From IMG/VR virus record IMGVR_UViG_3300047312_000028, positions 96,001-160,000 of that record: a stretch of DNA of 64,000 nucleotides. The stretch is one strand, 5' to 3'. Each line of letters opens with the position of its first letter. Position 1 is the stretch's first letter. Positions 3-32,087 of this stretch are shown here, piece by piece. The position numbers were made by a program, and so were the translations under genes. Source of the DNA: a virus. The notes beneath the pieces are model-generated. The model was not told the origin of the DNA and ran no database searches. It saw only the letters and a list, made by a program, of their open reading frames with translations.

Positions 3-332
3 AAAACATTACAGAAAGTGATTATGACTTCCGGCAGCGGGATCTTCAAAGAGGATGAAGTTGTTCGAGAACCCAACCGCGATCTTGTGGGTAAAGTATT
101 CTCATGGACCCCTAGCACGAACACTGCATACTTTAACAGCATGACAGGTGTTCTCAGAGCGAACGACGAAGTGTGGGGACTGGAAAGTGGTGCACATTGG
201 GTAGTACAGAGTGTTGAGGTCACCAATCAGAAAGATGCGCAGATACACATTTATCAGAATCCAATCACAGCAAACCAATATTCAGACTATGGATATTCAA
301 CAGTCATAACTGAATTCCCAGACACTTTATAG
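3..332 (+). CDS. gp15: Tail sheath stabilizer/completion protein gp15, C-terminal part (5' truncated by window edge)
   Basis: Frame is open from the window start. C-terminal NPITANQYSDYGY resembles gp15 ends, and the gene sits directly upstream of gp16-gp17. Confidence 0.6.
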   Translation, partial: KTLQKVIMTSGSGIFKEDEVVREPNRDLVGKVFSWTPSTNTAYFNSMTGVLRANDEVWGLESGAHWVVQSVEVTNQKDAQIHIYQNPITANQYSDYGYSTVITEFPDTL

Positions 333-339
333 GTGAAAC

Positions 340-861
340 GTGAAATTGAATCAAATTCTTGACCTAGATGTAACAGTGCCTTCAGCGTCGAATACCGGTA
401 ATGCCACGACCACTGTGGCGATTATGGTGCCTGTGAACCTCGTCCCAGATGTGAGCGGAAGCGCGAACAACACGATTGAACAGGACGCTGCCGAGACACG
501 AAAGAATGTCCGCACACTCATTGCTCAAGGTACACAAGCTGTTACAGAGTTGTTGGCACTTGCCCGCGATCTCAAAACACCACGCGCCTATGAAGTCGCA
601 AGTAACATGCTGAAAACCATGTCGGATCTCAGTCAGGATCTTCTAGTCGTTCGACAACAAGAGAAGACACTTGAAGAGACAGCAGACACAGGTGATATCA
701 CGATTCAACAAGCTGTGTTTGTGGGGTCGACGGCCGACCTAGCTGAGTTAGTGAAACTGAAGAGGGCTGAGAGAAAAAATGCAAACACCATCACGGTCAA
801 AGCCGAAAGCGTCACAGACGTTCAAGGTACGACCAGTCTCCAAGAAATTCTACCTCACTAA
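340..861 (+). CDS. gp16: Terminase small subunit
   Basis: PRAYEVA motif and C-terminal AVFVGSTADL typical of T4-like gp16; precedes gp17. Confidence 0.88.
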   Translation: MKLNQILDLDVTVPSASNTGNATTTVAIMVPVNLVPDVSGSANNTIEQDAAETRKNVRTLIAQGTQAVTELLALARDLKTPRAYEVASNMLKTMSDLSQDLLVVRQQEKTLEETADTGDITIQQAVFVGSTADLAELVKLKRAERKNANTITVKAESVTDVQGTTSLQEILPH

Positions 862-2512: not shown

Positions 2513-2525
2513 GAATCACTAGAAG

Positions 2526-2533
2526 TATAAATA
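2526..2533 (+). promoter_or_regulatory. T4-type late promoter TATAAATA upstream of gp18
   Basis: Exact TATAAATA in the intergenic region; the phage encodes gp55. Confidence 0.85.
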
Positions 2534-2606
2534 GACTTACGAAACCAGATTTTCGACAAATTATGACTTCCACTGTAGCACACTAATCCTATGTAAGGAG
2601 ATAACC

Positions 2607-16805: not shown

Positions 16806-17182
16806 AAATGACCAAAGAAGAGGTGGCGTCTTACCATGCCAACTATTACCGCAACAACAAAGATAAATGGAAGCCCAACACAAGAACCAGTGCAGTAAGA
16901 AGAGCGGACGGTCAAAAACTAAAAAATCTAGTGTTCAGTCATTATGGAACAGTTTGTCAATGTTGTGGAGAATCTAGATTGGTGTTCTTAGCTTTGGACC
17001 ACATTCATAACAATGGAAAAGAAGACAGAAAAATTACTGGGCTGGGACAAAATCTCTATCGATGGCTGAAACTTAATAATTACCCAGACGGGTATCAAGT
17101 GTTATGTCATAATTGTAATTGGGCAAAAAGAGATGGAATATGTCCCCACAAGATAGAGAATGTCATTGATCTAAAAGGATAG
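16802..17182 (+). mobile_element. HNH endonuclease (free-standing homing endonuclease-like)
   Basis: CQCCGE..LALDHIHNNG...YQVLCHNCNWAK; AT-rich. Confidence 0.8.
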
Positions 17183-17194
17183 TTGTGCTATAAT
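17166..17194 (+). promoter_or_regulatory. Sigma70-type promoter TTGATC-17-TATAAT (extended -10)
   Basis: Read from sequence; TG at the extended -10 position. Confidence 0.65.
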
Positions 17195-17202
17195 TACTTT
17201 CA

Positions 17203-17754
17203 GTGAAACCTCTCACAAGAAAGATGGACATGGTTGAATCCAAAGCTGATAACGACATAGCAATGGTGATGCTTGAGAACAGAGATGTAATTCTAACTGA
17301 GGTACAATCAGAAGATACGACAGGACCGATAGGACAAACACGCATTCATATATTCATCACACCAGCTTTAGTCATTGCGCAGCGCGGCCTGCATGGAAGT
17401 TTGGGACTACAACTTACCCCGTGGCTCCCATATGAAATCATGTCTGGCTCACACATTGAATACAGAAAAGATAAGATTATCGGCATATTACAACCCAATC
17501 CCCATCTTGTGACATATTACAAATCGTGGGCGAAGATCGAACGAGACAAACAGGTAGAGTTTGGTAAAGACTTTGCCAGTCAGATCGGAGAACTTCAAGA
17601 GTACCACGATCAGAAATATGCACGAACAAAACAAATGCACCAAGAGGAGAATGCTGCATCGCCTGTACCAAATCAGCACTCCGCACTGACACCGATTATC
17701 TATCAAATGTTCGACGAGGACAAGGATTGGGGAGACTCAGGCACGACCCATTAA
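17203..17754 (+). CDS. Hypothetical protein upstream of gp55
   Basis: Long ORF in the conserved uvsW-gp55 interval. Confidence 0.7.
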   Translation: MKPLTRKMDMVESKADNDIAMVMLENRDVILTEVQSEDTTGPIGQTRIHIFITPALVIAQRGLHGSLGLQLTPWLPYEIMSGSHIEYRKDKIIGILQPNPHLVTYYKSWAKIERDKQVEFGKDFASQIGELQEYHDQKYARTKQMHQEENAASPVPNQHSALTPIIYQMFDEDKDWGDSGTTH

Positions 17755-17762
17755 GGAGATTC

Positions 17763-18317
17763 ATGGCCCAGGCTCATTATGTCAATAATCAAGATTTATT
17801 GAAAGCACTCATTGAACACAGACAAGCACTGAAAGAAGCAAAAAAGACCAAGCAAACTCCACCTGAATTGAGTGAGTATCTTGGTACCTGTTTTCTCAAG
17901 ATCGCCGAGCATCTTTCGCGCAAACCGAACTTCATGTCCTACACGTTTCGTGAGGATATGATTTCCGACGCGGTAGAGAACTGTATTCAGTATGTCAACA
18001 ACTTCAATCCAGCGAAGTCCAAGAACCCCTTCGCCTACTTCACCCAAATCATCTACTTCGCTTTTCTGAGACGAATCAGCAAAGAGAAGAAACAACTTTA
18101 CGTTAAATACAAAGCGACTGAACAGCTTGGTATCTTACAGAACACTGAAATGCACGACCTCGATGGGATAGGTCAAGGAGGCGGTAAAGCGTTCCAAGTA
18201 TATGAAAACATTACAGAATTCATTCAAACGTTCGAGCAGGGGCGTAAAAACAAGAAACGTACCAAGAAGTCAACGAAGACAGCAACGCGCGGAACACTTA
18301 AATTTATAGGTGACTAA
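17763..18317 (+). CDS. gp55: Late transcription sigma factor
   Basis: HYVNN, NFMSYTFREDMISDAVENC, NPFAYFTQIIYFAFLRRI; AAGGAG SD before ATG 17763. Confidence 0.97.
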   Translation: MAQAHYVNNQDLLKALIEHRQALKEAKKTKQTPPELSEYLGTCFLKIAEHLSRKPNFMSYTFREDMISDAVENCIQYVNNFNPAKSKNPFAYFTQIIYFAFLRRISKEKKQLYVKYKATEQLGILQNTEMHDLDGIGQGGGKAFQVYENITEFIQTFEQGRKNKKRTKKSTKTATRGTLKFIGD

Positions 18318-18559
18318 TGTCCAAAGGTAAATTTCAACCGCAACCACAACGTTCTCAGATCGATCAACTCGAACAGAGAATGGAAAAGCTTGAGAAACGA
18401 ATCGAAGCATTAGAACGACAGCAACAAAGCGACCACGGCAGACTCGGTCCAGCAGTCATGGGATCGGGCAAAGATAGTCCGTTCTTGGAAATGCAAGACC
18501 GCATTAAAGAACTCGAAGATCAGAATATCTTTGGTCTCAACCAACGAATAGGTTTTTAA
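18317..18559 (+). CDS. Small coiled-coil hypothetical protein
   Basis: Translationally coupled (TAATG) at both ends. Confidence 0.65.
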   Translation: MSKGKFQPQPQRSQIDQLEQRMEKLEKRIEALERQQQSDHGRLGPAVMGSGKDSPFLEMQDRIKELEDQNIFGLNQRIGF

Positions 18560-19641
18560 TGAAGCTGGCACTAATCAACGACACGCACGCCGGAGCGCGT
18601 AGTGATAACCCACAGGTGAATGAATATTTCTTTCGTTTCTGGAACGATATCTTCTTTCCTTCGCTCACCAAATATAATATCGACAAAATCATCCACTTGG
18701 GTGATGTAGTCGACCGTCGCAAGTTCATTAACTTCGCAATTTGGTATAAGTGGAAGAAGGATTTCTTTGATCGTATTCAGAACGAATTCAATCTTCCTAT
18801 AGACATGCTCTGTGGTAACCACGACGTATACTATAGAAATACCAATGATGTGAATGCGTTAGATGAATTGCTGGGTAACTATCCCAACATTCGTATCTTC
18901 AAAGAAGCGCAAGACATGCAATATGGTAGCTTGAACGTCGCCTTAATCCCGTGGATTAACTCAGGCAACCTTGAGCGCAGCATGACCTATATTAACGAGA
19001 CCAAGGCGCCTGTGATCTTCGGTCACTTAGAAATCTCAGGCTTTGAGATGGACAACGGCAACGTGTGCCTTACCGGTTTGACCAAAGATGTATTTGATCG
19101 ATTCGACATGGTTCTGTCAGGTCACTTTCATCACCGATCAAGCGACGGATCAATCTTCTATCTCGGTAACCAATATGAAATGACATGGGCCGACTACAAG
19201 GACCCGCGCGGCTTCCATATCTTCGATACCGAAACAAGAGACTTGACTTATATCGAAAATCCATATAGACTGTTCCATAAGATTACTTACGATGATAGTC
19301 TCCAGAGCTTTGAATTCTGGAAGAATCATGCGTTCAAAAAGTACACAAGTTCGTATGTGAAAGTCGTAGTCGTTCGCAAGCAGAATCCTTATCTATTCGA
19401 CACGTTCATGGACATGCTGTACAAGGCATCCCCTCTCGACGTGACTACAGTAGAAGATTACACAGAGACCGCACTAGATGCCGCACAAGGTGTAGTCAAT
19501 CAGGCAGAAGATACCGTGACCATCATTCGCAAGTGCGTCGATGGCATGAAGATGCCTGGTGGTGTGGATCCAGAAAAGCTCAAAGGTATTCTGCAAGAGA
19601 TTTATGTTGAAGCGGTAAATACGGAAACGGACGCGCAATAA
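18559..19641 (+). CDS. gp47: Recombination endonuclease subunit (Mre11/SbcD-like)
   Basis: DTHAG, HLGDVVD, GNHD, GHLE, SGHFH metallophosphoesterase motifs. Confidence 0.97.
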   Translation: MKLALINDTHAGARSDNPQVNEYFFRFWNDIFFPSLTKYNIDKIIHLGDVVDRRKFINFAIWYKWKKDFFDRIQNEFNLPIDMLCGNHDVYYRNTNDVNALDELLGNYPNIRIFKEAQDMQYGSLNVALIPWINSGNLERSMTYINETKAPVIFGHLEISGFEMDNGNVCLTGLTKDVFDRFDMVLSGHFHHRSSDGSIFYLGNQYEMTWADYKDPRGFHIFDTETRDLTYIENPYRLFHKITYDDSLQSFEFWKNHAFKKYTSSYVKVVVVRKQNPYLFDTFMDMLYKASPLDVTTVEDYTETALDAAQGVVNQAEDTVTIIRKCVDGMKMPGGVDPEKLKGILQEIYVEAVNTETDAQ

Positions 19642-21350
19642 TGCTGCATTTCAAAAAGTTGAAGTGGAAGAACTTTCTTAGCACTGGGAACTACTGGTCA
19701 GAAATCGTATTCGACCGCAGCCAGAACACACTGGTTGTAGGAGAGAACGGTTCTGGTAAGAGCACAATGCTGGATGCTCTCTGCTTTGCTCTCTATAATA
19801 CACCGTTTCGTAACGTCAACAAGGGAACTCTAGTCAACTCTATCAACCAACGCGATTGTTCGGTTGAAGCTGAATTCACTACCGATAACCATGAGTATCG
19901 AGTCGTTCGTGGAATCAAGCCTGATGTGTTTGAAATCTACAAGGACGGAGTCCTCGAGGACCAGACTCCTTCTGTGGACTATCAAGATCATCTAGAGAAG
20001 TTCATTCTTAAGCTGAACTATAAAAGCTTCACCCAGATCGTGATTCTTGGATCGGCTTCGTTCACTCCGTTCATGCAATTGAAAGCCAGTGATCGACGCG
20101 CCATCATTGAAGACTTGCTAGACATACAGATTTTCTCGTTGATGAACAAGATAGTCAAGACTAAGCTTTCAGAACTCTTGAACGGTAAGCTTTCAAATAA
20201 GCTCCTGATTGATGCCTGTGCAGATAAGATTACCATACAAGAACGATATATTGCTGAAGCGCAGCAGGATGTCCAGGCACGTATCTCAGAGCACAATGAA
20301 GAGCTACGAAAGAACATTGAAGAGATTACAAAACTCAATATGAATATCGCAGTCTCTAAACGTTCGCTCTCTGACATGAGCTCCAAGATTGCCGACAAAG
20401 CGAAAATTGAAGCGTCCTTAAGAAAAGTGACTCAATTGGAAGCTCAGATCGAAAACAACACAAGTAAACATAAAAAGAATATCAAGTTCTTTGAGACAGA
20501 AGATCAATGCCCAACCTGTACACAGGTGATCGATTCGACATTCAAGACAGCGCAAATCACAGGATTGACTGCTAAAGTATCTGAGTGTCAGACGGGTCTA
20601 ACCCAACTTGAACAGAAAGCAATCACCTATCAAAAGCAGTTGAGTGATATCGCCGTTATTGAACAGGAGATGAATCTACATGAAGTGGGTATCTCTGGCT
20701 ATGAAAATTCGATTGCGCAGATCGAACGATTCAACCAGGTCTTGACAAATAAACTGAACGAATTACAGAACAACCACCACTCGACAGTGCGTGAACAAGA
20801 TCGACTCAAAGAACACCAAGACGAACTCGCCAAGCTCATTGCTGAGAAACAGGTGCTGATTAGCACCGAAGCGTATTATGAAGCGTCTAGCACTCTTCTA
20901 AAGGACACCGGGATCAAGACAAAGATCATTCGACAGTATTTGCCAATTATCAATACATTCTCGAATAAATACCTTGCCAGTATGGACTTCTTCGTGAACT
21001 TCAACCTGGACGAGACATTCAAGGAAACAATCAAGTCTCGATTCCGTGATGAATTCACATATCATTCGTTCTCAGAAGGACAGAAGCAACGCATTGACAT
21101 GGCCCTGATGTTGACCTGGAGAGGAGTCGCTAAACTCAAGAACTCAGCAGACACCAATCTGTTAATCCTTGATGAAATATTCGATTCCAGTCTTGACAAT
21201 GCGGGCGCCGAAGAACTGATGAAGATTCTGTATTCCCTTGAAGGCACAAATGTCTTCGTCATTAGCCACAGAGGAGACATTTTACAAGACAAATTCAGAA
21301 CCGTCATTAAGTTCGAGACTCACCAAAACTTTTCACGTATTGCATCATAA
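19641..21350 (+). CDS. gp46: Recombination ATPase subunit (Rad50/SbcC-like)
   Basis: GENGSGKST, CPTC zinc hook, FSEGQ signature, LILDE. Confidence 0.97.
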   Translation: MLHFKKLKWKNFLSTGNYWSEIVFDRSQNTLVVGENGSGKSTMLDALCFALYNTPFRNVNKGTLVNSINQRDCSVEAEFTTDNHEYRVVRGIKPDVFEIYKDGVLEDQTPSVDYQDHLEKFILKLNYKSFTQIVILGSASFTPFMQLKASDRRAIIEDLLDIQIFSLMNKIVKTKLSELLNGKLSNKLLIDACADKITIQERYIAEAQQDVQARISEHNEELRKNIEEITKLNMNIAVSKRSLSDMSSKIADKAKIEASLRKVTQLEAQIENNTSKHKKNIKFFETEDQCPTCTQVIDSTFKTAQITGLTAKVSECQTGLTQLEQKAITYQKQLSDIAVIEQEMNLHEVGISGYENSIAQIERFNQVLTNKLNELQNNHHSTVREQDRLKEHQDELAKLIAEKQVLISTEAYYEASSTLLKDTGIKTKIIRQYLPIINTFSNKYLASMDFFVNFNLDETFKETIKSRFRDEFTYHSFSEGQKQRIDMALMLTWRGVAKLKNSADTNLLILDEIFDSSLDNAGAEELMKILYSLEGTNVFVISHRGDILQDKFRTVIKFETHQNFSRIAS

Positions 21351-21361
21351 AGGAGATTGCT

Positions 21362-22057
21362 ATGAATGATCTGACCGTCAATCAGCCAACCGCACCGAAG
21401 AGCTTTTCATATAATACAGAAGCCCCTCCTACGATTGCACCTAAGCAGCCACCTAAGTTGCTTCCGTTGTATAATGAAAATAATCCCATGTTGGCACTCA
21501 AGCAGCCAGAGTTTGATGTAAAGAACCCACCAGTCAATATTATAGACTTTGCTAATCAGCTTCTCTACACCATGAGTCATTACGGTGGAGTAGGTCTTGC
21601 GGCACCACAATGCGGATTCCCTTTCCGTATGTTTGTCATGACGGGCGGGATCGTCTGTATCAACCCAGTGATCGTAGAACGATCAAAAGAAACAATATAC
21701 ACAAAGGAAGGGTGTCTCAGCTTCCCAGGTCTCTATTTGCCTGTGACCCGTCCCGAAACAGTCTTGATTCGCTACACCAACGAGTATGGAAAAGAAGTTG
21801 AAGTGCGATGGACAGGCGCCACGGCTCGATGTGCGCAACATGAGTACGATCATTTGGAAGGGAAAGTCTACACTTCACTAGTTGGTAACCTGACTCTTCA
21901 GATGGCGAAGAAGAAGCGACAGAAGCTTTTCAAGAAGATCCAACGCGCTGTAGAAATCAAGCAACGCAACCTTCGTATCGCTGGAAAAGATAAAGCATAT
22001 GTCGCCAAGACAGTTGAAAATAGACCGGTAGAGATTGAAACACATAGGCAGGGATAA
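21362..22057 (+). CDS. def: Peptide deformylase
   Basis: GVGLAAPQ, EGCLS, QHEYDH motifs. Confidence 0.95.
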   Translation: MNDLTVNQPTAPKSFSYNTEAPPTIAPKQPPKLLPLYNENNPMLALKQPEFDVKNPPVNIIDFANQLLYTMSHYGGVGLAAPQCGFPFRMFVMTGGIVCINPVIVERSKETIYTKEGCLSFPGLYLPVTRPETVLIRYTNEYGKEVEVRWTGATARCAQHEYDHLEGKVYTSLVGNLTLQMAKKKRQKLFKKIQRAVEIKQRNLRIAGKDKAYVAKTVENRPVEIETHRQG

Positions 22058-23196
22058 TGAAAGACTGGCAACACGGTATTGAAATCGACTATCTCAAGGC
22101 GCAAGAACGATTCTATGAACCGTTCAACAAACATGCTTTGTCGGTCTTTGGTAAGTTCAAGAAAAACGACATTGCTGCCAAATTGTATGCTGGTGTGTGG
22201 AAGAGAATGCGCGACTGTGCTTATGTCGTAGAAGAAGCGAAGGTAGCTACCAAGATCAGTATGCACGGCAGCACGATCATCGGTCAGAAAGAAAAAGGAG
22301 ATTTGACATTTTCTAAGCTTGTAGGTGATCTGATAGAGTTGACTTTTGCATTTCACGCATTACACTATAAAGAACGAAACTGTTTCATCGTCGCGTATGC
22401 TGGTCAAGAAGATATCTGTGCATTTGCCGAATACCAGGGATTCAGAAAGCTTGGTTATAAAGTTACTTCGTTTGCAGAGATTCTAGCAGTCTACTATCGT
22501 GATTCAGATTTAAGTCTCGCTCCACGCGATCATCCTAGAGCGTCTACTGCCGATCTTGTCGGCATGGCACAAGTCGGAATAGCGAATCATAAACTCCTAT
22601 TAGCCATTCTAGGAAAACTTCAATCACTTGACCCTAAGTTCACGAACCACTATAGCAACTACAATGCGAAGAATGCGTGGTCCGCTCTTTCACTTCGTGG
22701 CTACTCAGCAGATCCGGGCTTCATTATCAAGCCCGCTGAGATGAATGATAAGTGGTTAGCTGAACACAAAACTGAGAACTACTTTCTACAAGATACACCT
22801 TTATATACCCAATTCCCCGAGGTCCGACAATTATTGTCGTTCTTAGATGGGGAAGTGCACCGGGTACGATTTATGCAATTAGCTCCTGGCGGGGGAGAGT
22901 TACAAAGACATACAGACCAGGTCGATCCTGATGCTGGCAACTCGTTAGGCGCCGTGGCTCGCTTGCACTTCCCTTTAGTCACAAATGAACGAGTGATCTT
23001 CAGTACATGGAATGAGTTTGACAAAGAAGAAAACTATCATTATGGATTCGGTGAAGTGTGGGTGATCGATACACGCAAACCACACAAAGCAGTCAACGGT
23101 GGCAAAGACAATCGTATACATCTTGTGGTTGATGTAGTTGTCACACCTAAGATTGAAAGGATAATTTGTGAAGGTACCTCAAGACGTATTGAATAA
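22057..23196 (+). CDS. Fusion: unknown (possibly GNAT-like) N-terminal domain + Asp/Asn beta-hydroxylase-like 2OG-Fe(II) oxygenase
   Basis: RVRFMQLAPGGGELQRHTD, RLHFPLVTN, DTRKPHKAVNGG..RIHLVVD. The N-terminal GFRKLG weakly resembles GNAT motif B. Confidence 0.75.
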   Translation: MKDWQHGIEIDYLKAQERFYEPFNKHALSVFGKFKKNDIAAKLYAGVWKRMRDCAYVVEEAKVATKISMHGSTIIGQKEKGDLTFSKLVGDLIELTFAFHALHYKERNCFIVAYAGQEDICAFAEYQGFRKLGYKVTSFAEILAVYYRDSDLSLAPRDHPRASTADLVGMAQVGIANHKLLLAILGKLQSLDPKFTNHYSNYNAKNAWSALSLRGYSADPGFIIKPAEMNDKWLAEHKTENYFLQDTPLYTQFPEVRQLLSFLDGEVHRVRFMQLAPGGGELQRHTDQVDPDAGNSLGAVARLHFPLVTNERVIFSTWNEFDKEENYHYGFGEVWVIDTRKPHKAVNGGKDNRIHLVVDVVVTPKIERIICEGTSRRIE

Positions 23197-23611
23197 GATG
23201 TTTGAGACGGCAGACCTCTCAAAGGATGAACTCTATGATGCTTTGAGAAAGATGGGTGCCAAAGCGATCAAGCCCAAGTTCCGATTTGGTTGGTCTGAAG
23301 AAGTGCCTACGTGGTGCACTTGCTACTTTGTCTCTGAGTTTGCCTACTTCTATCTTGCACCGAAGGGAACGAAACCCTATTCAGTAAAAGTGCCTGGTGA
23401 TCCTGGGACGCATAGATTCTTGATGTGGCCAGATTCCATCATTGTTGATTTAACAGCAGAACAATTCCCAGATTATGGACTGGTGAGAACAGCCTACTCA
23501 AAAGCTAGAGTTACAATGTTCATGCAAACAGGATGTGTCGGTCCATCACAGAGAGCGAAGGAGCTAGCCGGGATCCTTGGCTTTAATGAATCAGCCTGGT
23601 CAAAACCTTAA
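23168..23611 (+). CDS. Hypothetical protein (Cys-His-Asp, papain/transglutaminase-like pattern)
   Basis: CYFVSE...THRFL...IVDLTAEQF; fold assignment tentative. Confidence 0.5.
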   Translation: MKVPQDVLNKMFETADLSKDELYDALRKMGAKAIKPKFRFGWSEEVPTWCTCYFVSEFAYFYLAPKGTKPYSVKVPGDPGTHRFLMWPDSIIVDLTAEQFPDYGLVRTAYSKARVTMFMQTGCVGPSQRAKELAGILGFNESAWSKP

Positions 23612-23621
23612 AGGAGAAGCT

Positions 23622-24239
23622 ATGAAGCAGAATTACACACATATGATTTTGGTGCTCGACGAATCAGGTTCCATGGCATACACCGCGGCCGCGACACGAG
23701 AAGGCGTCAATGGATTGCTCGATACGCAGCAAGCGGTGCCTGGCGATCTCACGACAGCGTTGTATAAGTTCTCAAACTCAGTATCGGAAGTAGCGACCCT
23801 CTTGGCGCTCACGACAGACAACTATCGTCCAAGTGGTGGTACAGCATTGAATGATGCCGTATGCCAAGCGATTGACAAAGAAGGTGCGCGCCTTTCTGCA
23901 TTGCCAGAAGAACAACGACCGGATAAGGTTGTGGTAGCGATTGTGACTGACGGATTTGAAAATGCGTCAATCAAATTCAAGAAAGCAGATGTGAAGGATC
24001 GTATCACCCGCCAAGAAGCACAGTACCAGTGGCAATTTGTATTCTTGGGTGCCAACATGGATGCGTTCGCTGAAGCAGAATCCTACGGCATCTTGAAAAC
24101 GTCAGGTTATGCGTTCAATATGACAGCAGACAGCATTAAGACCTCTTATGATGTTACCTCGAAAGCGTTTGCTGATTACAGAGTGGGAACGAAAAAGACA
24201 GTCAACATGGCAGACGCCGCAAAGGACCTGGGTAAATAA
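23622..24239 (+). CDS. von Willebrand factor A domain protein
   Basis: MIDAS LDESGSM, GGTALNDA, VTDGFENAS, FVFLGAN. Confidence 0.9.
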   Translation: MKQNYTHMILVLDESGSMAYTAAATREGVNGLLDTQQAVPGDLTTALYKFSNSVSEVATLLALTTDNYRPSGGTALNDAVCQAIDKEGARLSALPEEQRPDKVVVAIVTDGFENASIKFKKADVKDRITRQEAQYQWQFVFLGANMDAFAEAESYGILKTSGYAFNMTADSIKTSYDVTSKAFADYRVGTKKTVNMADAAKDLGK

Positions 24240-24240
24240 T

Positions 24241-25068
24241 ATGTTTTACAAACCCCTCTCAGTTATGCCTGGTATGTTTGATTTTCTGCATGAATCGATT
24301 GCAGAGATAGAACATTCTGGATGGCAAGACCCAAACCCACCAATTCAAGTCATGGATCATGAGGGCTTCCTCGTGGTCCGTGATGACCTCCTCGGATACG
24401 GATCGAAAGCTCGATTCATCGATTATATGATTAAGACAGCACCACAACAGCAATTCGTATTCGGTGCCTGTCCTGCGACTGGTTACGCACAGATCAGTTT
24501 ACCCGCCGTCGCTACTCGGTATAATAAGCAGGTGCATTTGTTCATGGCACAACGAAACATGAACAAACTTCACGACTATCAGAAGCTAGGAGCGGACTTA
24601 GGATCGATCTATCACTGGGTGCCTTCTGGTATGCTGAACGTAACCAAAGCCAGAGCAATGGAGTATGCCGCAGAAGATCCAATCAATCGCGTCTTATTAC
24701 CTATCGGTCTTGAGAATCCCACAGTCATTGCCAGCATCGTCAAAGTGGCAAGAGACCAAATAGGATTCACACCAGATCATGTATGGACGGTTGGTTCTAG
24801 CGGTACGCTGAACAGAGGTCTGCAACTTGCCTGGCCGACTGCCGAAGTACATGTAGTCTCTGTGGGTCATAAAATGAGTGAACGAGAAATAGGCAGAGCA
24901 ATCATACATACCGTTCCGTATAAGTTCGACAAGAAGCTGAAGCCAATCGATGCACCACCGTTCCCAAGTGCGCCGACATACGATGCAAAGGGATGGCGTC
25001 CGATGGTTGATTGGTATAAGACACATGAACGACCTGAGAAGGTTCTCTTCTGGAACGTCGCCGCATAA
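24241..25068 (+). CDS. PLP-dependent fold-type II enzyme (ACC deaminase/D-cysteine desulfhydrase/cysteine synthase-like)
   Basis: VVRDDLLGYGSKAR (PLP lysine), VGSSGTL phosphate loop, YDAKGW, LFWNVA. Confidence 0.8.
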   Translation: MFYKPLSVMPGMFDFLHESIAEIEHSGWQDPNPPIQVMDHEGFLVVRDDLLGYGSKARFIDYMIKTAPQQQFVFGACPATGYAQISLPAVATRYNKQVHLFMAQRNMNKLHDYQKLGADLGSIYHWVPSGMLNVTKARAMEYAAEDPINRVLLPIGLENPTVIASIVKVARDQIGFTPDHVWTVGSSGTLNRGLQLAWPTAEVHVVSVGHKMSEREIGRAIIHTVPYKFDKKLKPIDAPPFPSAPTYDAKGWRPMVDWYKTHERPEKVLFWNVAA

Positions 25069-25072
25069 TTCC

Positions 25073-25101
25073 TTGACATTTCAATTCACTTGTGGTATAA
25101 T
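25073..25101 (+). promoter_or_regulatory. Consensus sigma70 promoter TTGACA-17-TATAAT with extended -10
   Basis: Perfect consensus read from sequence. Confidence 0.9.
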
Positions 25102-25109
25102 TCTCACTT

Positions 25110-25499
25110 ATGCGTCTACTTGTCTGCGGCGACCGTGAATGGTCAGACTACATTATGATCGAACGTGAAATCAAAAATCTCAAGCCCGCCATCGTGATTG
25201 AAGGTGAAGCTAGAGGCGCAGACAGTCTTGCCCGCAAAGCTGCCGAAACTCTCGGCATTCCAGTTCTCCCCTTCCCCGCTGATTGGGACCAGTATGGTCG
25301 ATCAGCGGGGCCCATTCGCAATCGCTTGATGTTAAGTAAAGGTATGCCTACACTTGTACTTGCGTTCCATGATAATCTAGCGAAGTCAAAAGGCACTCTT
25401 GATATGGTGAATGCTGCACGAAAGTACGGCGTAGAAGTGAGAGTGATTGGACATGGCTCAACCGTAACCTACCCCGCAACAGGAAGACTTGATCTATGA
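25110..25499 (+). CDS. SLOG superfamily protein (YspA/DUF2493-like)
   Basis: LLVCGDR, IEGEARGAD, PADWDQYGRSAGPIRN, SKGT. Confidence 0.85.
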   Translation: MRLLVCGDREWSDYIMIEREIKNLKPAIVIEGEARGADSLARKAAETLGIPVLPFPADWDQYGRSAGPIRNRLMLSKGMPTLVLAFHDNLAKSKGTLDMVNAARKYGVEVRVIGHGSTVTYPATGRLDL

Positions 25500-27172
25500 A
25501 TTGGTTTTATGAAAAGAACAACGAACTCTTAGAGTCACCCGTCAACAAGACGTTTGAAGAACTCTTGTGGATGACGAAAGATGAATTCAGACAATGGGTG
25601 ATTGATCTCCGCAAGACGGTGGTATACCTATGGGATGAGAAAGGCCAGCCACCTCGTGTTGGATATAACGAGAATGAAATTATCGAACAGTTCAACGATC
25701 TTGAGCCATTCATGGTCGATAGCTTCTTGAAACTTGATGAATACACAGGCGACAAGAATATCATTCGCAACACATCCAATCTTGGTAACGCGGTCAATCA
25801 GTTCTTCCCTACTATGATGAAGACTCGTATCAACTACACAAAAGACCCAAGTGCAGGTAAGTCCATCTATGACTTCTTCGCAAAGCCAGAGCTACTTGAT
25901 ACATTCATCACGTATGCTTCGCGGCACTTTAAGCGCGACAGCTTCTATCATTACTCTGTACCAATCAAGACGTTTGATCGAACGCGCATGGGATTGCTGC
26001 CAGTGACACAGACTGGTATTGAGTGGATCAAAGAGTTTGAAGCTGGTGTATTCAGAAAGAAGAACTGGGACTACTGGCTGGCGCCACGAGAAATTGAATC
26101 AGAATACACAGGTTACAACGAAGACCTGAAAGGCCAGTCCTACCTTCGTGTAACCAAACAAGAACTCGACACACTCACTGTACCCGACAAATGCAAGACT
26201 AATGTTCGAGAACTCAAAGACAATGAATCATTCTTGATCCGTGTGTTTGAGAAGGGACAGAAAGTATTCCCTATCGGTCTCAAAGCGTTTCGTGTCTCGT
26301 TCTGTCAATACGCTGTGAACTTCCCACCGTTGACTGCAAAGTTCATTTATGAGAAGTATACCCAAGAGTGGAAAGATGAATCGATGATCTATGTCTGGGA
26401 CCCATCGTCTGGTTGGGGTGGTCGTTTGCTCGGTGCATTGTCTGTTGCCGATACTTTGCGACTCACCTACCTAGGCAACGATCCTAATACCGATCATAAC
26501 ATCGGTCACGGGAAGACGAAGTATCACGCTATTGCCGACTTCTATCATGAACATGTGCAGAAGGGCGGCGGGACCATGATGAAGTATGCAGAAAGTCCAC
26601 GACCGCATAACAAGTTCGTCTTCTGGCAGAAGGGTTCTGAGGAGATGCAGTATGAACTTGAGTTTCTGAAGTATAAAGGAAAGTTGAGTCTGGTATTCAC
26701 AAGTCCTCCGTACTTTGCCAAAGAAGCGTATTCAGAAGACAAAGAGCAATCTTATAAGAAGTTTTCACAGTATGATCTGTGGCGCGATGGTTTTTTACAA
26801 GAAACACTCAAGACCGCAGTTGAATGGTTGCGCCCAGGCGGATATCTCGCGTGGAACATTGCCGATGCAGACTTTGGTGGGCAGACACTTCCACTAGAAG
26901 GAGATTCGCGTAAGTTCCTTGAAGATGCCGGTATGATCTACGTTGAGACTATGAAAATGTCACTCGCACAGATGCCTGGCGGTAATCGACTTGACACTGT
27001 TACCGGTTTGCCGAAAGCTAAGAACTTCTGCAAAGTCGATGGATTGTGGCTGAAGTACGAACCCATCTTTATCTATCGCAAACCCGGCACATCCGGCGCA
27101 CAACGGCGCAAAGAGACAACACCCGACAGACAGATCATAGTCAGACCTCCGGCAGGGAAGCTAGACTTTTGA
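25496..27172 (+). CDS. Large amino-methyltransferase-fold protein (N4-C/N6-A DNA MTase-like)
   Basis: SAM-binding WDPSSGWGGRL, catalytic FTSPPY, YEPIFIY; long N-terminal region. Confidence 0.8.
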   Translation: MNWFYEKNNELLESPVNKTFEELLWMTKDEFRQWVIDLRKTVVYLWDEKGQPPRVGYNENEIIEQFNDLEPFMVDSFLKLDEYTGDKNIIRNTSNLGNAVNQFFPTMMKTRINYTKDPSAGKSIYDFFAKPELLDTFITYASRHFKRDSFYHYSVPIKTFDRTRMGLLPVTQTGIEWIKEFEAGVFRKKNWDYWLAPREIESEYTGYNEDLKGQSYLRVTKQELDTLTVPDKCKTNVRELKDNESFLIRVFEKGQKVFPIGLKAFRVSFCQYAVNFPPLTAKFIYEKYTQEWKDESMIYVWDPSSGWGGRLLGALSVADTLRLTYLGNDPNTDHNIGHGKTKYHAIADFYHEHVQKGGGTMMKYAESPRPHNKFVFWQKGSEEMQYELEFLKYKGKLSLVFTSPPYFAKEAYSEDKEQSYKKFSQYDLWRDGFLQETLKTAVEWLRPGGYLAWNIADADFGGQTLPLEGDSRKFLEDAGMIYVETMKMSLAQMPGGNRLDTVTGLPKAKNFCKVDGLWLKYEPIFIYRKPGTSGAQRRKETTPDRQIIVRPPAGKLDF

Positions 27173-27228
27173 GCAATATCAATGACTTACCCTCCAACAT
27201 TATAATCCTCTAATCTTCACACAATTTC

Positions 27229-27257
27229 TTGACTAACCCCCTATGCTCTGATATTCT
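27229..27257 (+). promoter_or_regulatory. Sigma70-type promoter TTGACT-17-TATTCT
   Basis: Hexamers, 17-bp spacer, TG extended -10. Confidence 0.6.
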
Positions 27258-27266
27258 CTAACCATA

Positions 27267-29774
27267 ATGAGCAACAAAATAGGGGAGACAAAAAGCATGT
27301 TCACAGTCGAAACAAAAAGCATGTTGGCAAAGTTGATGGCGACTGAGAATATCAAGGTCGAACATCGAAACTGCAAGACAGCGGGATTCAATCTGAAGAC
27401 CCGCACCTTGATTTGCCCAATCTGGAAAGACATGTCAGGTGATCTGTATGACATGTTGATGGGTCATGAAATCTCACATGCTCTTCGTACCCCTGTTGAT
27501 GGTTGGCACGATTCAGTTGTCTACGCTGGCGGCGACAAGAAAGCGAGCCCGGAAGCTCAACGCGCATTCAAGCATTTCCTGAACGTTGCTGAAGATGCAC
27601 GAATTGAAAAGCTTGTGAAGCGCCAGTATCCCGGCATTCGTCGACCCATGGTCAATGCGTACAAAGAACTGCTAGCAAAAGACTTCTTCGGTCTTTCTGC
27701 CATCACAAATTTCAATGAACTCTATTTGATCGATAAGCTGAATCTTGCCGCGAAGTGTGGAACTCTTGTAAACATTCGCTTCTACGGCAAAGAAAAAGCA
27801 CTCTATGATGAAATGATGGGCACAGAGACATGGGATGAAGTGGTCGCGTTCACGCGCAAAGTGTACGAATATAGCAAAGAAGAACAGCAACAAGGCGAAC
27901 AGAAGCGCAAAGAGCTTGCCGATCATTTGAAAGAAATGTATGAGCAGGAGCAAGCTGAAGAGGACGAACAATGCGACGATGACGAAGATTCTTATTCTTT
28001 TGAGGGTGAAGGCGACGATGAAGACGGCGAAGAAGGTGAGGATGGCGACAGCGACGGAGAGAGTGATGAAGATGAAGACGGCGAAGATGGCGACGGAAAA
28101 GGTGAAGATGGGGAAGACGGAGAAGAAGGCGATGGTAAGAAAAGTAAGTCAAAGGGTGAAAATGCCAAAGATGACAAAGAAAAGAAAGCTGATGACAAAG
28201 CAGTAGACAAAAAGAAAGATGACGGCAAGGGAAATCGAAGCAAGAAGTCTGATTCGACAAAACCGGCTCAGGTTGGCGAAGATAAGGGTCAAGAGAACTC
28301 GAACGAGAAAGGCGACTTTGTTCCTAAAGCAAAGACAGATGAAGCGTTCCGTGCTCGTGAGGAACGATTGATCGAAAAGACCAAGACTGAATCATATTAT
28401 GTAAATATTCCTCTAGTCACGTTGAAGGATGTTGTAGCTCCTGCGGAGATCGTGAATCGTGGGCTCACGTACTACTACGCGGCGCGAAAAGAAGAAGGAT
28501 ACAAGCTCTTCAACGAATTCAAGAAGAAGAATGAGGACTATATCTCATTGCTGGCAAAAGAATTTGAAATGAAGAAAGCTGCACGATCATATGCGAAAGC
28601 GAAGATTTCAGATTCGGGCGATATCAATATCAACAAGCTGGCAAACTATCGCATGGAAGATAACATCTTCAAGAAGATGATTCAGGTTCATAAAGGTAAG
28701 TCTCACGGTCTAGTCTTGATTCTCGACAAATCTGGTTCGATGCACCAGCACATTGAAGGGGCAATGGAACAGATTCTTGTCATGGCGCTCTTCTGTCGTA
28801 AGGTCAATATCCCGTTCGTTGCGTATAGCTTCACAAGCAGTGGGTGTGGTTCGATGGAACATGACTTTCCAGGACGTGGACATGGATCAAAGAATCCTTT
28901 AAGACCATTCAGCAAGCGCCCCCTCGACATGATAATGGGCAATCTTGAACTTCGTGAAATGTTCAACTCAAAGATGCCCGCTAGCGAGTTTACACAATCA
29001 ATTATGAACCACTTGATGGTAGCGAAAGCGTTATCAAGTCGCCAAGGGTATTCAGCACCCAATCATGAACGCATGGGCGGCACCCCGCTGAACGAAGCGT
29101 TGGTAGCCTTGCGTGATCTGATTCGCCAGTTCAAAGGTCAACATCGATTAGATATCGTGAATGCTGTAGTCGTGCATGACGGCGATTCTGATGGTAACAG
29201 CAGAGCCTTTGCTGAGAATAGCAATACCAAGGGCAACGAGGGCGACCATTCGTATTCATACAACACAATCCATTTTCATCCAGAAATCAATCGTCTGACT
29301 CTTGTGGACACGAAAGAGAAGATCCAGATTGATGTGCCGAAAGAAAGCCGGGGCCTCACGATTGCATTGATGAAGTGGATTCAGATGACCGCCGATTGTG
29401 GAGTCTTCGGATTCTACATCACAGGCGCTACAGCATCGACGGCACGTGGTGGGATCATGAATCTCTTTCAGAATGAGCAGGGAATTAAATTAGAGCATGT
29501 GCGCAAGCATAATACAAATGAAGCGGGGATGTTGATTGACAAGCTCTGCCGCGAAGTGATCGAAAAGAAGTTCCTTGAATCATGGACTTCAGGCTACACG
29601 CGGTTCTATTTCATTCCCGGTTCAGTTGAGTTGAAGACCGAGAATCTTCAGATGGTTGAGAACGGCAAGGGTTGGACCCCTTCGCGTCTTCTGACGGCGT
29701 TTAAGCGGGTCAATCGACGTAAACAAGTGTCTCGCGTTCTCGTGAACAAGTTTATTGAGCTAATCGCCGTCTAA
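27267..29774 (+). CDS. CobT-like protein: HExxH metallopeptidase-like N-terminus, acidic linker, C-terminal vWA domain
   Basis: GHEISHAL, NVAEDARIE, D/E/G-rich linker, LDKSGSM MIDAS, GGTPLNEAL; start may be ATG 27297. Confidence 0.85.
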   Translation: MSNKIGETKSMFTVETKSMLAKLMATENIKVEHRNCKTAGFNLKTRTLICPIWKDMSGDLYDMLMGHEISHALRTPVDGWHDSVVYAGGDKKASPEAQRAFKHFLNVAEDARIEKLVKRQYPGIRRPMVNAYKELLAKDFFGLSAITNFNELYLIDKLNLAAKCGTLVNIRFYGKEKALYDEMMGTETWDEVVAFTRKVYEYSKEEQQQGEQKRKELADHLKEMYEQEQAEEDEQCDDDEDSYSFEGEGDDEDGEEGEDGDSDGESDEDEDGEDGDGKGEDGEDGEEGDGKKSKSKGENAKDDKEKKADDKAVDKKKDDGKGNRSKKSDSTKPAQVGEDKGQENSNEKGDFVPKAKTDEAFRAREERLIEKTKTESYYVNIPLVTLKDVVAPAEIVNRGLTYYYAARKEEGYKLFNEFKKKNEDYISLLAKEFEMKKAARSYAKAKISDSGDININKLANYRMEDNIFKKMIQVHKGKSHGLVLILDKSGSMHQHIEGAMEQILVMALFCRKVNIPFVAYSFTSSGCGSMEHDFPGRGHGSKNPLRPFSKRPLDMIMGNLELREMFNSKMPASEFTQSIMNHLMVAKALSSRQGYSAPNHERMGGTPLNEALVALRDLIRQFKGQHRLDIVNAVVVHDGDSDGNSRAFAENSNTKGNEGDHSYSYNTIHFHPEINRLTLVDTKEKIQIDVPKESRGLTIALMKWIQMTADCGVFGFYITGATASTARGGIMNLFQNEQGIKLEHVRKHNTNEAGMLIDKLCREVIEKKFLESWTSGYTRFYFIPGSVELKTENLQMVENGKGWTPSRLLTAFKRVNRRKQVSRVLVNKFIELIAV
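27950..28260 (+). repeat. Low-complexity acidic then Lys-rich linker (GAA/GAC/GGC-rich) within the CobT-like gene
   Basis: EGEGDDEDGEEGEDGD... imperfect codon repeats. Confidence 0.7.
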
Positions 29775-29812
29775 GTGTACAAAAATGTACAGAAAATACG
29801 TGGTATTTGAGC

Positions 29813-29841
29813 TTGACTTTGTGGTGTGTCTTTGTTAGACT
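29813..29841 (+). promoter_or_regulatory. Sigma70-type promoter TTGACT-17-TAGACT
   Basis: Hexamers, 17-bp spacer, TG extended -10. Confidence 0.65.
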
Positions 29842-29880
29842 TCTACCAGATTGACACACATATCAACAAAAGGAGCGAAT

Positions 29881-31116
29881 ATGACAGAGCGAATTGAATC
29901 CCGTGACAAGTTTCTGGCTCTCTTAGTCTCGACTGGCAAGAGTGTCATTACGAAACAAGAGATACGGGACTTGTGTGAAGCGAATGATATGAAGGTCCCT
30001 CAGTGGTTCACGAAAGACGATGTGAACCGCGCGGGTCGCGGGATGTTCAGAGTGCCAGGTGTCCCAGTGTCAATCACAGCAGATAATCACGTATCAACTC
30101 AAGAAGAGAAAGAGGAGGAGATTGTGGAACAAGTTGCTATGCAGCCGTTGGCATTGGCGCCTGTGACAAAGAAACTCAAGATTGCGACGATTGCAACCGA
30201 TCTTGAAGAGCAGGGGATTATCCCGCTCAAGTATAAGAACTATGTTCCCTTCGGCAACTTTGATGATCTGAAGGCGATCATTCTTTCTCGACAGTTCTAC
30301 CCCGTGTTCATCACAGGCCCGTCTGGTAACGGCAAGAGCTTGTCAGTTGAGCAGGTCTGTGCAATGCTCGGGCGTGAATATGTGTGTGTTAGTATGACGC
30401 CTGAGACTGATGAAGGTGACTTGCTCGGCAACTACATCTTGCTTGACAATCAGATGATTTGGCGAGACGGTGCAGTGACTACAGCGGCTCGACGTGGCGC
30501 GGTTCTTTGTATCGATGAAATTGACTACGGCGCACAGAATCTTTCGTGTCTGCAACGAGTGCTTGAAGGAAAGCCGTTCTTGCTTAAGAAGAAAGGCGAA
30601 CTTGTGACCCCGGCTCCTGGGTTCCAGATCATTGCGACTGCGAACACAAAGGGGAAGGGATCTGAAGACGGACGCTACATGTTCACGAACGTCTTGAATG
30701 AATCGTTCCTTGAGCGATTCCCTATCACGTTCGAGCAAGAATGGGCGCCGAACAATGTTGAGCGACGTATTATCAAGAAAGAACTCGAAACGTCTGGTCG
30801 TGAGGATGATGACTTTGCGATGAACTTGGTCACCTGGGCTAGCACGATTCGCAAGGCCTACGAAGAAGAAGGTGCTTCAAGTGAAGTAGTCTCGACTCGT
30901 AGACTGGTGCACATTGCCCGTGCGTATCCGATATTCAACGGAGATCGTATCAAGGCCATCACGTATTGTTTGAACCGATTCGATGAAGAAACCAAGAAGT
31001 CATTCATCGATTTGTACACGAAGGTGGATGCCAGCGTGACTGTGAACAATACAGTGAACTCTACCGATCCGAGTGCGATACCAGACCCTGATGCGGCGAC
31101 TATAGTGGTAACATAA
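29881..31116 (+). CDS. CobS-like/MoxR AAA+ ATPase
   Basis: GPSGNGKS, LCIDEID, ATANTKGKGS, NESFLERF, STRRLVHI; AAGGAG SD. Confidence 0.92.
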   Translation: MTERIESRDKFLALLVSTGKSVITKQEIRDLCEANDMKVPQWFTKDDVNRAGRGMFRVPGVPVSITADNHVSTQEEKEEEIVEQVAMQPLALAPVTKKLKIATIATDLEEQGIIPLKYKNYVPFGNFDDLKAIILSRQFYPVFITGPSGNGKSLSVEQVCAMLGREYVCVSMTPETDEGDLLGNYILLDNQMIWRDGAVTTAARRGAVLCIDEIDYGAQNLSCLQRVLEGKPFLLKKKGELVTPAPGFQIIATANTKGKGSEDGRYMFTNVLNESFLERFPITFEQEWAPNNVERRIIKKELETSGREDDDFAMNLVTWASTIRKAYEEEGASSEVVSTRRLVHIARAYPIFNGDRIKAITYCLNRFDEETKKSFIDLYTKVDASVTVNNTVNSTDPSAIPDPDAATIVVT

Positions 31117-31123
31117 AAAGTTC

Positions 31124-31152
31124 TTGACAGTTCGTCCGAGTTGTGTTATCAT
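31124..31152 (+). promoter_or_regulatory. Sigma70-type promoter TTGACA-17-TATCAT
   Basis: Hexamers, 17-bp spacer, TG extended -10. Confidence 0.8.
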
Positions 31153-31168
31153 GCGTCATTGAATGTAC

Positions 31169-31250
31169 ATGCTGCCGCCTGAAAGAGTGCAGCATTAAAC
31201 AAATTGAGGGTGGATCGACCTCCTTTTCGATCCGTTAAACAATGAGGTGT
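31169..31250 (+). ncRNA. Structured 5' leader/sRNA: two hairpins, the second with an anti-SD loop CCTCCTTT
   Basis: ATGCTGC/GCAGCAT and GGATCGA/TCGATCC stems, each followed by TTAAACAA(AT)TGAGG. Confidence 0.55.
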
Positions 31251-31254
31251 TTTG

Positions 31255-31539
31255 ATGGCGAAGGTAGCAAAGGTTTCTGGCAAGTCACGCATTTTGGCAT
31301 TCTTGCAGAAGACTGAGGGTTACAACACTCTCAGCGTCCGTCAGGCTCAAGCCCGCTTTAGAGTTGCAAACGTGTCAGCAACGATTGCGAAGCTCAGAGC
31401 AGAAGGATATTCCATCTACACAAACACGCGCAAGCGTGGCGATGGAAGTGCAGTGGCAGTGTATCGCTTGGGTCGTCCGTCTGCGTCCTTTATTGCGCAG
31501 TGTGAATTGCGGAACGTCACCCCGAAGGGCACGAACTAA
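31255..31539 (+). CDS. Small basic HTH-like DNA-binding protein
   Basis: QARFRVANVSATIAKLRAEGYSIYTN...YRLGRPS; own promoter and terminator. Confidence 0.75.
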   Translation: MAKVAKVSGKSRILAFLQKTEGYNTLSVRQAQARFRVANVSATIAKLRAEGYSIYTNTRKRGDGSAVAVYRLGRPSASFIAQCELRNVTPKGTN

Positions 31540-31569
31540 TCCAAGTTCGTTTCTGTCCTTCTAGTAGTC

Positions 31570-31605
31570 GGCGGAGGTCTCCAATCGGGGGCCTCCGCTT
31601 TGTTT
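31570..31605 (+). terminator. Intrinsic terminator
   Basis: GCGGAGGTCTCC-AATC-GGGGGCCTCCGC followed by TTTGTTT. Confidence 0.88.
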
Positions 31606-31625
31606 CGTCTTCTGGAGAACCCACC

Positions 31626-32087
31626 ATGACTCAATCATTTAGAAAATGGGACCTGCGTTTCATCGAACTCGCCAAACATATTTCCACATGGTCAAAAGAT
31701 CCCAGCACTCAGCTAGGTTCAGTGATCGTTGACAAGCGCAATCGAGTTATCTCTATGGGGTACAACGGTTTCCCTCGTGGCGTGAAAGACACACCTGAAC
31801 GACTGAATACCAGAGAAGTCAAATATAAGATGATCGTTCATGGTGAAATGAATGCCCTAGTGTTCGCAACGCAACCCCTCAAGGGAACCACCATGTACAT
31901 CTGGCCGTTTATTTCATGCTCTACATGCACAGCGGTTATTATCAATGCGGGTATACAACGAGTCGTAGCACCTGTGAATGACAACCCACGATGGAAAGAA
32001 TCGTTCGATCTAAGTAAGCAACTCTACCATGAAGCTGGCGTACAAGTTGTCCTTCTTGATGGATTATTGGGGGAGGAGTTATGCTGA
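31626..32087 (+). CDS. cd: dCMP deaminase
   Basis: SKDPSTQLG, GYNGFPRG, HGEMNA, CSTC. Confidence 0.92.
   Translation: MTQSFRKWDLRFIELAKHISTWSKDPSTQLGSVIVDKRNRVISMGYNGFPRGVKDTPERLNTREVKYKMIVHGEMNALVFATQPLKGTTMYIWPFISCSTCTAVIINAGIQRVVAPVNDNPRWKESFDLSKQLYHEAGVQVVLLDGLLGEELC

Follow-up and report, generated by a model that had tools for sequence, protein, structure and literature searches.

To our knowledge, all amino-acid-derived hypermodifications of DNA described so far begin with 5-hydroxymethyl pyrimidines that are made before replication. The closest described systems are the pathways for thymidine hypermodification in phages M6, ViI and PaMx11. Experiments with purified proteins identified gp52 of M6 and gp226 of ViI as pyridoxal phosphate (PLP)-dependent enzymes that decarboxylate amino acids carried by thymidine in DNA (Lee et al., NAR 2021, PMC8989533). 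Here, a gene cluster of an uncultured T4-like myovirus is described that encodes a PLP protein of the same family as M6 gp52, together with a methyltransferase-like protein of 558 amino acids (aa), referred to as MT558, and an AspH-type Fe(II)/2-oxoglutarate (2OG) oxygenase. The source is a record of 176,325 bases in IMG/VR (IMGVR_UViG_3300047312_000028), rated 100% complete. Its bases 96001-160000, a stretch of 64,000 nucleotides, are referred to as the window. All positions are those of the window, and the cluster is located at 22057-27172 (Table 1).

Common to this cluster and to the M6, ViI and PaMx11 pathways is the logic of an amino-acid-like group on a DNA base that is tailored after replication. 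Unlike in these pathways, the PLP protein is accompanied here by a methyltransferase-like partner, without a dUMP hydroxymethylase, a 5-hydroxymethyldeoxyuridine (5-hmdU) kinase or an amino-acid:DNA transferase (AADT, aGPT-Pplase2), and the AspH-type oxygenase would represent an extra tailoring step that is not described for them (PMC8989533). Since the defining enzymes of the thymidine pathway are absent, the module is set outside of it, as a hypermodification of phage DNA with a tailoring enzyme of the gp52 type. Its target is probably an exocyclic amine of cytosine or adenine rather than C5 of thymidine, because the partner is a methyltransferase-like enzyme instead of the enzymes of the thymidine pathway. 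Overall, we regard it as fairly probable that the module carries out a post-replicative DNA modification that makes something larger than a methyl group.

Two further systems are comparable in part. In microcin C biosynthesis, the methyltransferase-like 3-amino-3-carboxypropyl (acp) transferase MccD acts first and is followed by MccE, a PLP decarboxylase with an additional GNAT domain, to yield an aminopropyl group; the reverse order, via decarboxylated S-adenosylmethionine (SAM), is also possible there (PMC10491745). The chemistry is the same as that proposed below for the phage module, yet the resemblance is one of mechanism only, and the acceptor in microcin C is a peptide-nucleotide phosphoramidate, not a DNA base. 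Mom of phage Mu, a protein with a GNAT fold, uses Gly-tRNA to attach glycine to the N6 position of adenine in DNA (PMC13219725). This is likewise an amino-acid-derived mark on a purine exocyclic amine in phage DNA, and the AspH fusion protein may hold a GNAT-like domain, but Mom works without a methyltransferase, a PLP enzyme or an oxygenase. Literature searches returned the thymidine pathways, carboxymethylcytosine (CmoX) and the tRNA-dependent Mom reaction, and no description of a methyltransferase-PLP-oxygenase DNA modification module or of acp on DNA.

The PLP protein itself is not directly recognized by Pfam. Since PDB sequence and profile searches gave nothing significant either, its fold was taken from an AF2 model built on 23 orthologues (pLDDT 91.8) and from Foldseek. 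Both predict a fold-type II PLP fold, in agreement with the first-pass annotation of the window, which was made from the letters alone. The leading Foldseek matches are D-cysteine desulfhydrase, ACC deaminase (top E 7e-11) and the ACC-deaminase homologue 1j0a, with E ~1e-10 and TM ~0.69. gp226 was modelled on 1j0a as well (PMC8989533). Homologues of the PLP protein in Erythrobacter phage R6L and Microcystis phage Mae-JY30 exceed the Pfam PALP cut-off. At the family level, the PLP protein matches phrog_7093 (E 4e-35), of which M6 gp52 is the full-length archetype (E 2e-159). An hhalign comparison of the window-family profile with gp52 extends over 224 columns (probability 98.1, E 8e-14) and pairs the invariant K56 of the PLP protein with K36 of gp52, the Schiff-base lysine named in PMC8989533. 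The C-terminal signature PPFPS..YD.KAW...FWNV is common to the PLP family and gp52. By these matches, the PLP protein is assigned to the M6 gp52/ViI gp226 family of decarboxylases of DNA-tethered amino acids, and the same type of activity is predicted for it.

To characterize the linkage of the genes, a survey was centred on the PLP gene, with 49 IMG/VR loci that have at least 3 kb on both sides and with neighbours counted within 6 kb. A homologue of MT558 is found in 41 and an AspH gene in 28 of the 49 loci. Dereplication at 90% identity resulted in 27 clusters, of which 20 contain MT558, 14 AspH, four the gene of a 137-aa YunG-like protein (p137), two a SLOG gene and one a VWA-like gene. Viewed from MT558, the PLP and AspH genes are present in most loci that extend far enough. 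The gene order is variable: AspH-p137-PLP-MT, MT-AspH-p137-PLP and MT-PLP are found (MT, MT558-like), with or without a neighbourhood containing SbcCD genes, and the first two orders also occur away from it. In the most distant MT558 clade (36-39% identity), the PLP gene directly follows MT558 rather than preceding it. This co-occurrence of the PLP, AspH and MT genes in many phage contigs and in shuffled orders is the outcome of an analysis that the first-pass annotation had proposed as a check.

When longer relatives of the PLP protein were sought, fusion proteins were found in which the same parts are joined in a single chain. MT-AspH-PLP fusions of 994-1191 aa are present in several independent clusters (P0001-P0013), including an nr protein of Nitrosomonas nitrosa, and MT-PLP fusions have ~680 aa. 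In one protein (P0021), AspH, p137 and PLP are fused. Two proteins of 1051-1065 aa (P0028 and P0029) combine PF01358, a poxvirus VP39-type domain, with an MT558-like core and a PLP domain. Other phage types show a related arrangement: gp1 of Erythrobacter phage R6L is a PF01555-PALP fusion, the PF01555 and PALP genes of Microcystis phage Mae-JY30 are overlapping neighbours beside terminase, and in bacterial prophage-like loci a PF01555 protein is encoded directly before the PLP gene in nine of nine cases. These prophage-type methyltransferases match the same PHROGs as MT558 (12517 and 498) and share its motif order, but have CPPY in motif IV; some carry a ParB-like N-terminus.

Co-occurrence, fusions and the other phage types are three independent lines that argue for a functional linkage of the MT558, PLP and AspH genes. 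The recurrent module, as read from these loci, consists of MT558, the PLP protein, the AspH fusion and, less often, p137 as an optional part. The first-pass annotation had noted a promoter at 25073 that splits the cluster, and had therefore taken the linkage as not proven. The promoter is real: it is of the sigma-70 type and the best match within 17000-32000. No terminator-like site is found between the PLP and SLOG genes that flank it. The repeated co-occurrence in shuffled orders and the fusions outweigh this promoter, which therefore does not break the linkage.

The absence of an hmU kinase and an AADT, previously noted for the window, extends to the whole 176-kb genome. No ThyA-family dUMP hydroxymethylase (PF00303) is encoded in the complete genome, with the PF00303 control positive in 10 of 14 genomes, and ThyX is the only thymidylate enzyme found. 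The 176-kb genome also contains no match to M6 gp54 (5-hmdU DNA kinase) or gp51 (transferase) and none to the AADT family PF18724, for which the positive controls M6 and mycobacteriophage LilMcDreamy were detected. Because hydroxymethylase, kinase and transferase were not found, the known route for hanging an amino acid on DNA is absent. The two-domain MT-PLP proteins must themselves supply a tethered alpha-amino acid for the decarboxylase. As no other amino-acid-installing enzyme is encoded, the acp part of SAM would be the most economical source, and MT558 is proposed as the initiating enzyme of the module.

The oxygenase domain of the 379-aa fusion protein matches PF05118 (Asp_Arg_Hydrox) at residues 191-361 (E 3e-12, 46.9 bits vs cut-off 22.6), and its best PDB sequence match is the L-proline cis-4-hydroxylase 4p7w (E 5e-6). 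H285-x-D287, H343 and R353 are invariant in 17 orthologues, which is the pattern expected of metal and 2OG ligands by analogy with 4p7w. The N-terminal ~185 aa are also conserved and travel with the cupin domain, including inside fusions. For this extra domain, a possible GNAT-like nature had been suggested previously. The domain as such is confirmed, but its GNAT nature is not established: the ESM Atlas neighbours are GNATs with TM 0.43-0.45 from a low-confidence model (pLDDT 0.60), among 14 orthologues, none has a Pfam GNAT match with E up to 1, and no solved GNAT, Mom included, was matched when PDB was searched by profile. The adjacent p137 has a weak Pfam match to PF24585 (E 0.011) and an ESM Atlas feature score of 0.96 to YunG/Phage_YunG-like clusters. 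Its gene lies between the AspH and PLP genes in several genome contexts, and p137 is classified from its sequence as a YunG-like, optional module component.

Among cultured phages, only mycobacteriophage LilMcDreamy (NC_051582) has a homologue of the oxygenase, namely gp4. The gp4 gene overlaps the end of gp3, which is an AADT by Pfam (PF18724, 47 bits). The complete row (1-4333) comprises the ParB-like gp1, the DpdA-like gp2, gp3 and gp4, followed by terminase genes. LilMcDreamy is thus a cultured and tractable phage for studying the oxygenase.

Further DNA-acting families are found beside distant relatives of the module. In a distant MT-PLP clade, TET-associated DNA glycosyltransferases (TAGTs; PF20691, 38-53 bits) are encoded within one or two genes downstream, which suggests that the mark may be glycosylated in this clade. 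No TET/JBP gene was seen in the scanned parts of the three contigs. In a metagenome-assembled genome of Bauldia litoralis (L069:4136-10720), a 702-aa MT-PLP fusion is preceded by a 1203-aa protein that combines an Mrr-type nuclease and a ResIII helicase with eight HA domains. The two genes are separated by 860 bp, and an integrase-like gene is nearby. This locus may be a restriction-modification-like island that uses hypermodification. The substrate of the module is read as DNA because its partners and relatives, namely gp52, AADT, TAGT and the Mrr protein, are DNA-acting families.

The glycosyltransferase loci of the distant clade are L048:8233-13968, L052:169-6521 and L058:135-5813, and in L048 a GT1-like protein is also encoded after MT-PLP. 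In L048, a PNP_UDP_1 gene (family of the methylthioadenosine (MTA)/S-adenosylhomocysteine (SAH) nucleosidases) is located directly upstream of the MT gene, and a NodU-type carbamoyltransferase and a PF13640 2OG oxygenase are encoded in the vicinity. An MTA-nucleosidase-like gene, sought in the genome of the window as a hint of MTA release, was not found there.

MT558 had been described in the first-pass annotation as an unusually large methyltransferase-fold protein with an SPPY motif. It passes the cut-off of PF01555, a family of phage and prophage amino-methyltransferases that are often fused to ParB (31.3 bits vs 26.7, residues 398-533). The alignment spans only positions 2-110 of the 221 profile positions. 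Just half of the profile aligns because the motif order of MT558, with DPSSGWGG (motif I) near residue 302 ahead of TSPPYF (motif IV) at residues 402-407, is the reverse of that in the Pfam model. MT558 also matches phrog_12517 and phrog_498. Full-length relatives are present at 62 IMG/VR loci with 36-74% identity. None was found in cultured phages, where the best tblastn match covers 55% at 22% identity. In 36 orthologues, D302, S304, G306, W307 and G309 of motif I, the motif II acid D329, T402-F407 of motif IV and the subsequent E410, Y412 and D415 are invariant, and TSPPYF is kept in every MT558-like part of the fusion proteins. In terms of the motif IV pattern (S/D/N)PP(Y/F), MT558 has S, unlike the PLP-linked prophage type.

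The AF2 model of MT558 (pLDDT 85) contains a class I methyltransferase core, the SAM-binding part. The N-terminal domain (~1-270) is conserved and holds an invariant block in the same 36 orthologues, e.g. N101-Q-F-F-P105. Whole-model fold searches return generic class I methyltransferases and are uninformative on these 270 aa; nocardicin NAT (8zhv), at rank 22, is one of many class I folds. PDB sequence and profile searches gave a weak match to 2zie alone (E 0.27). Residues 534-558 form a tail of 25 residues that is unique to this phage, missing from the orthologues and of low confidence or disordered in the AF2 model. MT558 differs from the usual PF01555 enzymes in the motif order I-IV, the conserved N-terminal domain and the obligate-looking PLP and AspH partners.

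The analysis shows the folds and families of the proteins, the conservation of catalytic residues in all three enzymes, the linkage of the genes and the lack of the thymidine-pathway enzymes. In the proposed mechanism, for which we infer DNA as the substrate, the base that is targeted, the transferred group and the sequence of the steps, MT558 would flip out a cytosine or adenine of the DNA after replication. It would then load the exocyclic amine with the acp group from SAM, instead of or besides a methyl group, with release of MTA. The PLP enzyme would make a Schiff base to the acp group's free alpha-amine and decarboxylate this group to a 3-aminopropyl group, and the AspH-type oxygenase would hydroxylate a side-chain carbon before or after decarboxylation. 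Adding or shaping another group may be the role of p137 and of the N-terminal domain in the oxygenase fusion. In an alternative order, analogous to the second route considered for microcin C, SAM may be decarboxylated first, followed by aminopropyl transfer. The acp-to-aminopropyl chemistry specifically is put forward as a tentative proposal, conceivable but somewhat short of probable. With the same reserve, MT558 could represent the first SAM acp (or aminopropyl) transferase that is directed at DNA, and N-(3-aminopropyl) or N-(hydroxy-aminopropyl) cytosine or adenine the product of the module.

Several points weigh against this reading. Nothing in the sequence separates acp transfer from methyl transfer, and homology is not claimed between MT558 and the SAM acp transferases (MccD, TYW2, Tsr3, NAT and others) or between the PLP protein and MccE. 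Two complete related genomes with terminal repeats (L013 and L035) keep MT558 and have no PLP homologue anywhere, so MT558 is useful alone and may simply methylate in those phages. In one contig (L016, L123), the PLP gene is ~38 kb away from MT558. The structural neighbours of MT558 in VIA are led by the tRNA m2G enzymes TrmN, Trm11 and Trm14 (Z 15.9), just ~1-3 Z units above many unrelated class I methyltransferases, and give no specific support for DNA; with such a margin, the structural neighbours leave the substrate of MT558 undecided.

These neighbours bear on the possibility that the module modifies RNA (tRNA or rRNA) or protein, for example with acp or aminopropyl on a tRNA base or on a glutamine or lysine of a translation factor. 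The best matches of the MT domain include, besides the tRNA m2G enzymes, tRNA m6A methyltransferases, METTL5 and PrmC, and some of the fusions are named TrmN6 by JGI. For enzymes of the AspH family, proteins or free amino acids are the usual substrates. The cluster also has a peptide deformylase gene upstream, and acp modifications are known in tRNA and rRNA (PMC10491745). Such a target is nevertheless considered quite unlikely, given that the Z scores barely set RNA methyltransferases apart from generic class I folds, that relatives carry ParB-like N-termini and adjoin terminase genes, and that the partner families gp52, AADT, TAGT and the Mrr restriction protein act on DNA.

More weight has to be given to the explanation that MT558 is an ordinary DNA N4-cytosine or N6-adenine methyltransferase, with the PLP and AspH proteins helping in another way or being unrelated accessory genes. 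They might destroy SAH or MTA, decarboxylate SAM, or share a variable slot of the genome. SPPY is the classical motif of N4-cytosine methyltransferases, and the PF01555 match with canonical motifs I, II and IV fits this explanation, as do the complete genomes with MT558 but without PLP or AspH. As alpha-amino acids, both SAH and SAM could be bound by a PLP enzyme, and route b of microcin C decarboxylates SAM first (PMC10491745). However, the repeated independent fusions of MT, AspH and PLP and the conserved adjacency across unrelated phage types argue for a shared substrate, and DNA-tethered amino acids are the substrates of the sole characterized enzymes in the PLP family. The tie of the LilMcDreamy AspH homologue to an AADT and the TAGT genes that follow the MT-PLP pair in another clade also speak against plain methylation, which is therefore regarded as unlikely.

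A further explanation is that the genes make a small molecule, e.g. a polyamine-like compound, in an auxiliary metabolic pathway where a methyltransferase-fold aminopropyl transferase would cooperate with a PLP decarboxylase and a hydroxylase. Spermidine synthases indeed have a class I methyltransferase fold and use decarboxylated SAM as donor. Aquatic T4-like phages are rich in auxiliary metabolic genes, and the window contains cobS-like, ThyX and cytidylyltransferase genes. The invariant TSPPYF and the PF01555/Eco57I matches, in contrast, are typical of amino-methyltransferases that act on nucleic acids or proteins, not of aminopropyl transferases. ParB fusions and restriction-enzyme neighbours point to DNA, and the known substrates of the PLP family are DNA-bound, which makes a small-molecule product highly improbable.

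If MT558, the PLP protein and the oxygenase do form a post-replicative DNA hypermodification module, its entry point would differ from that of the thymidine pathways, in that a methyltransferase-like enzyme would act on unmodified bases of already replicated DNA. This would be a new class of DNA hypermodification with new base chemistry, probably on cytosine or adenine, and the mark would be further glycosylated in some clades. It would also explain a gene set that is very common in uncultured T4-like phages of soil, fresh water and sea. The single-chain MT-PLP and MT-AspH-PLP enzymes, some of which are found in bacteria, could then be used for DNA tagging at defined sites. The question bears on phage escape from restriction and on which defences, such as type IV enzymes and Mrr-like proteins, recognize such marks.

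The genomic context of the cluster is that of a T4-like phage. The + strand of the window carries the genes for terminase, sheath, portal, scaffold and major head protein as well as those for a B-family DNA polymerase, a DnaB-like helicase and SbcCD (gp46/47-type). In its major capsid protein, the phage shares 62-63% identity with Synechococcus myophages and Methylophilales phage Melnitz, and the 5-kb region has no DNA-level match among cultured phages (megablast). The cluster, counted here as seven genes, is tightly packed on the + strand after the peptide deformylase gene. An overview is shown in Table 1.

Table 1 Features of the cluster and its surroundings in the window
Feature	Position	Strand	Evidence
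AspH-type Fe(II)/2OG oxygenase fusion, 379 aa	22057-23196	+	PF05118
YunG-like protein (p137), 137 aa	23198-23611	+	weak PF24585, ESM Atlas
VWA-like protein, 205 aa	23622-24239	+	phrog_7371
Fold-type II PLP protein, 275 aa	24241-25068	+	phrog_7093, AF2 + Foldseek
Promoter TTGACA-17-TATAAT with upstream TG	25073-25101	+	12/12 consensus match
SLOG/YspA protein, 129 aa	25110-25499	+	PF10686, phrog_289
Methyltransferase-like protein MT558, 558 aa	25496-27172	+	PF01555, TSPPYF
Peptide deformylase, 231 aa	21362-22057		Pfam domain
phrog_459 'peptidase', 835 aa, and cobS-like AAA+ protein, 421 aa	27267-31116		phrog_459, phrog_249
Second promoter TTGACA-17-TATCAT with TG	31124-31152		11/12 match
Terminator-like hairpin, strong	31570-31599		
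Cytidylyltransferase-like and ATPase-like protein, 808 aa	57339-59765		PHROG matches

The genes listed by the first-pass annotation exist at the positions it gave, all on the + strand, as judged from open reading frames and sequence reading, and its 'Cys-His-Asp protein' is p137. The VWA-like gene had been overlooked, and three starts had been placed too early; they were trimmed to ATG at 23198, 23622 and 24241.

The VWA-like protein matches phrog_7371 with E 3e-44 and has weak VWA Pfam matches below the cut-off. The SLOG protein is supported by PF10686 (E 1.5e-12, 47.6 bits vs cut-off 28.2) and phrog_289 (E 7e-27). Its stop overlaps the start of MT558, which points to translational coupling of the two genes in this phage. 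Both genes were considered as parts of the module and rejected on their co-occurrence. They are found beside the module only in close relatives, and no fusions of either were seen, so they are treated as bystanders: the VWA-like gene as a local one interleaved in the cluster, and the SLOG gene probably as well. Of the linkage proposed previously for the cluster, the part that concerns the methyltransferase-fold, PLP and AspH genes stands, and that of the SLOG gene does not extend beyond near relatives.

The Pfam domain of the upstream peptide deformylase covers residues 45-172, with an N-terminal extension of ~40 residues and a basic C-terminal tail. Downstream, the phrog_459 'peptidase' and the cobS-like protein follow MT558 in most related contigs and appear to be conserved neighbours outside the module. 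The second near-consensus sigma-70-type promoter is located after the cobS-like gene, and a hairpin and the gene of an 808-aa protein are found further downstream.

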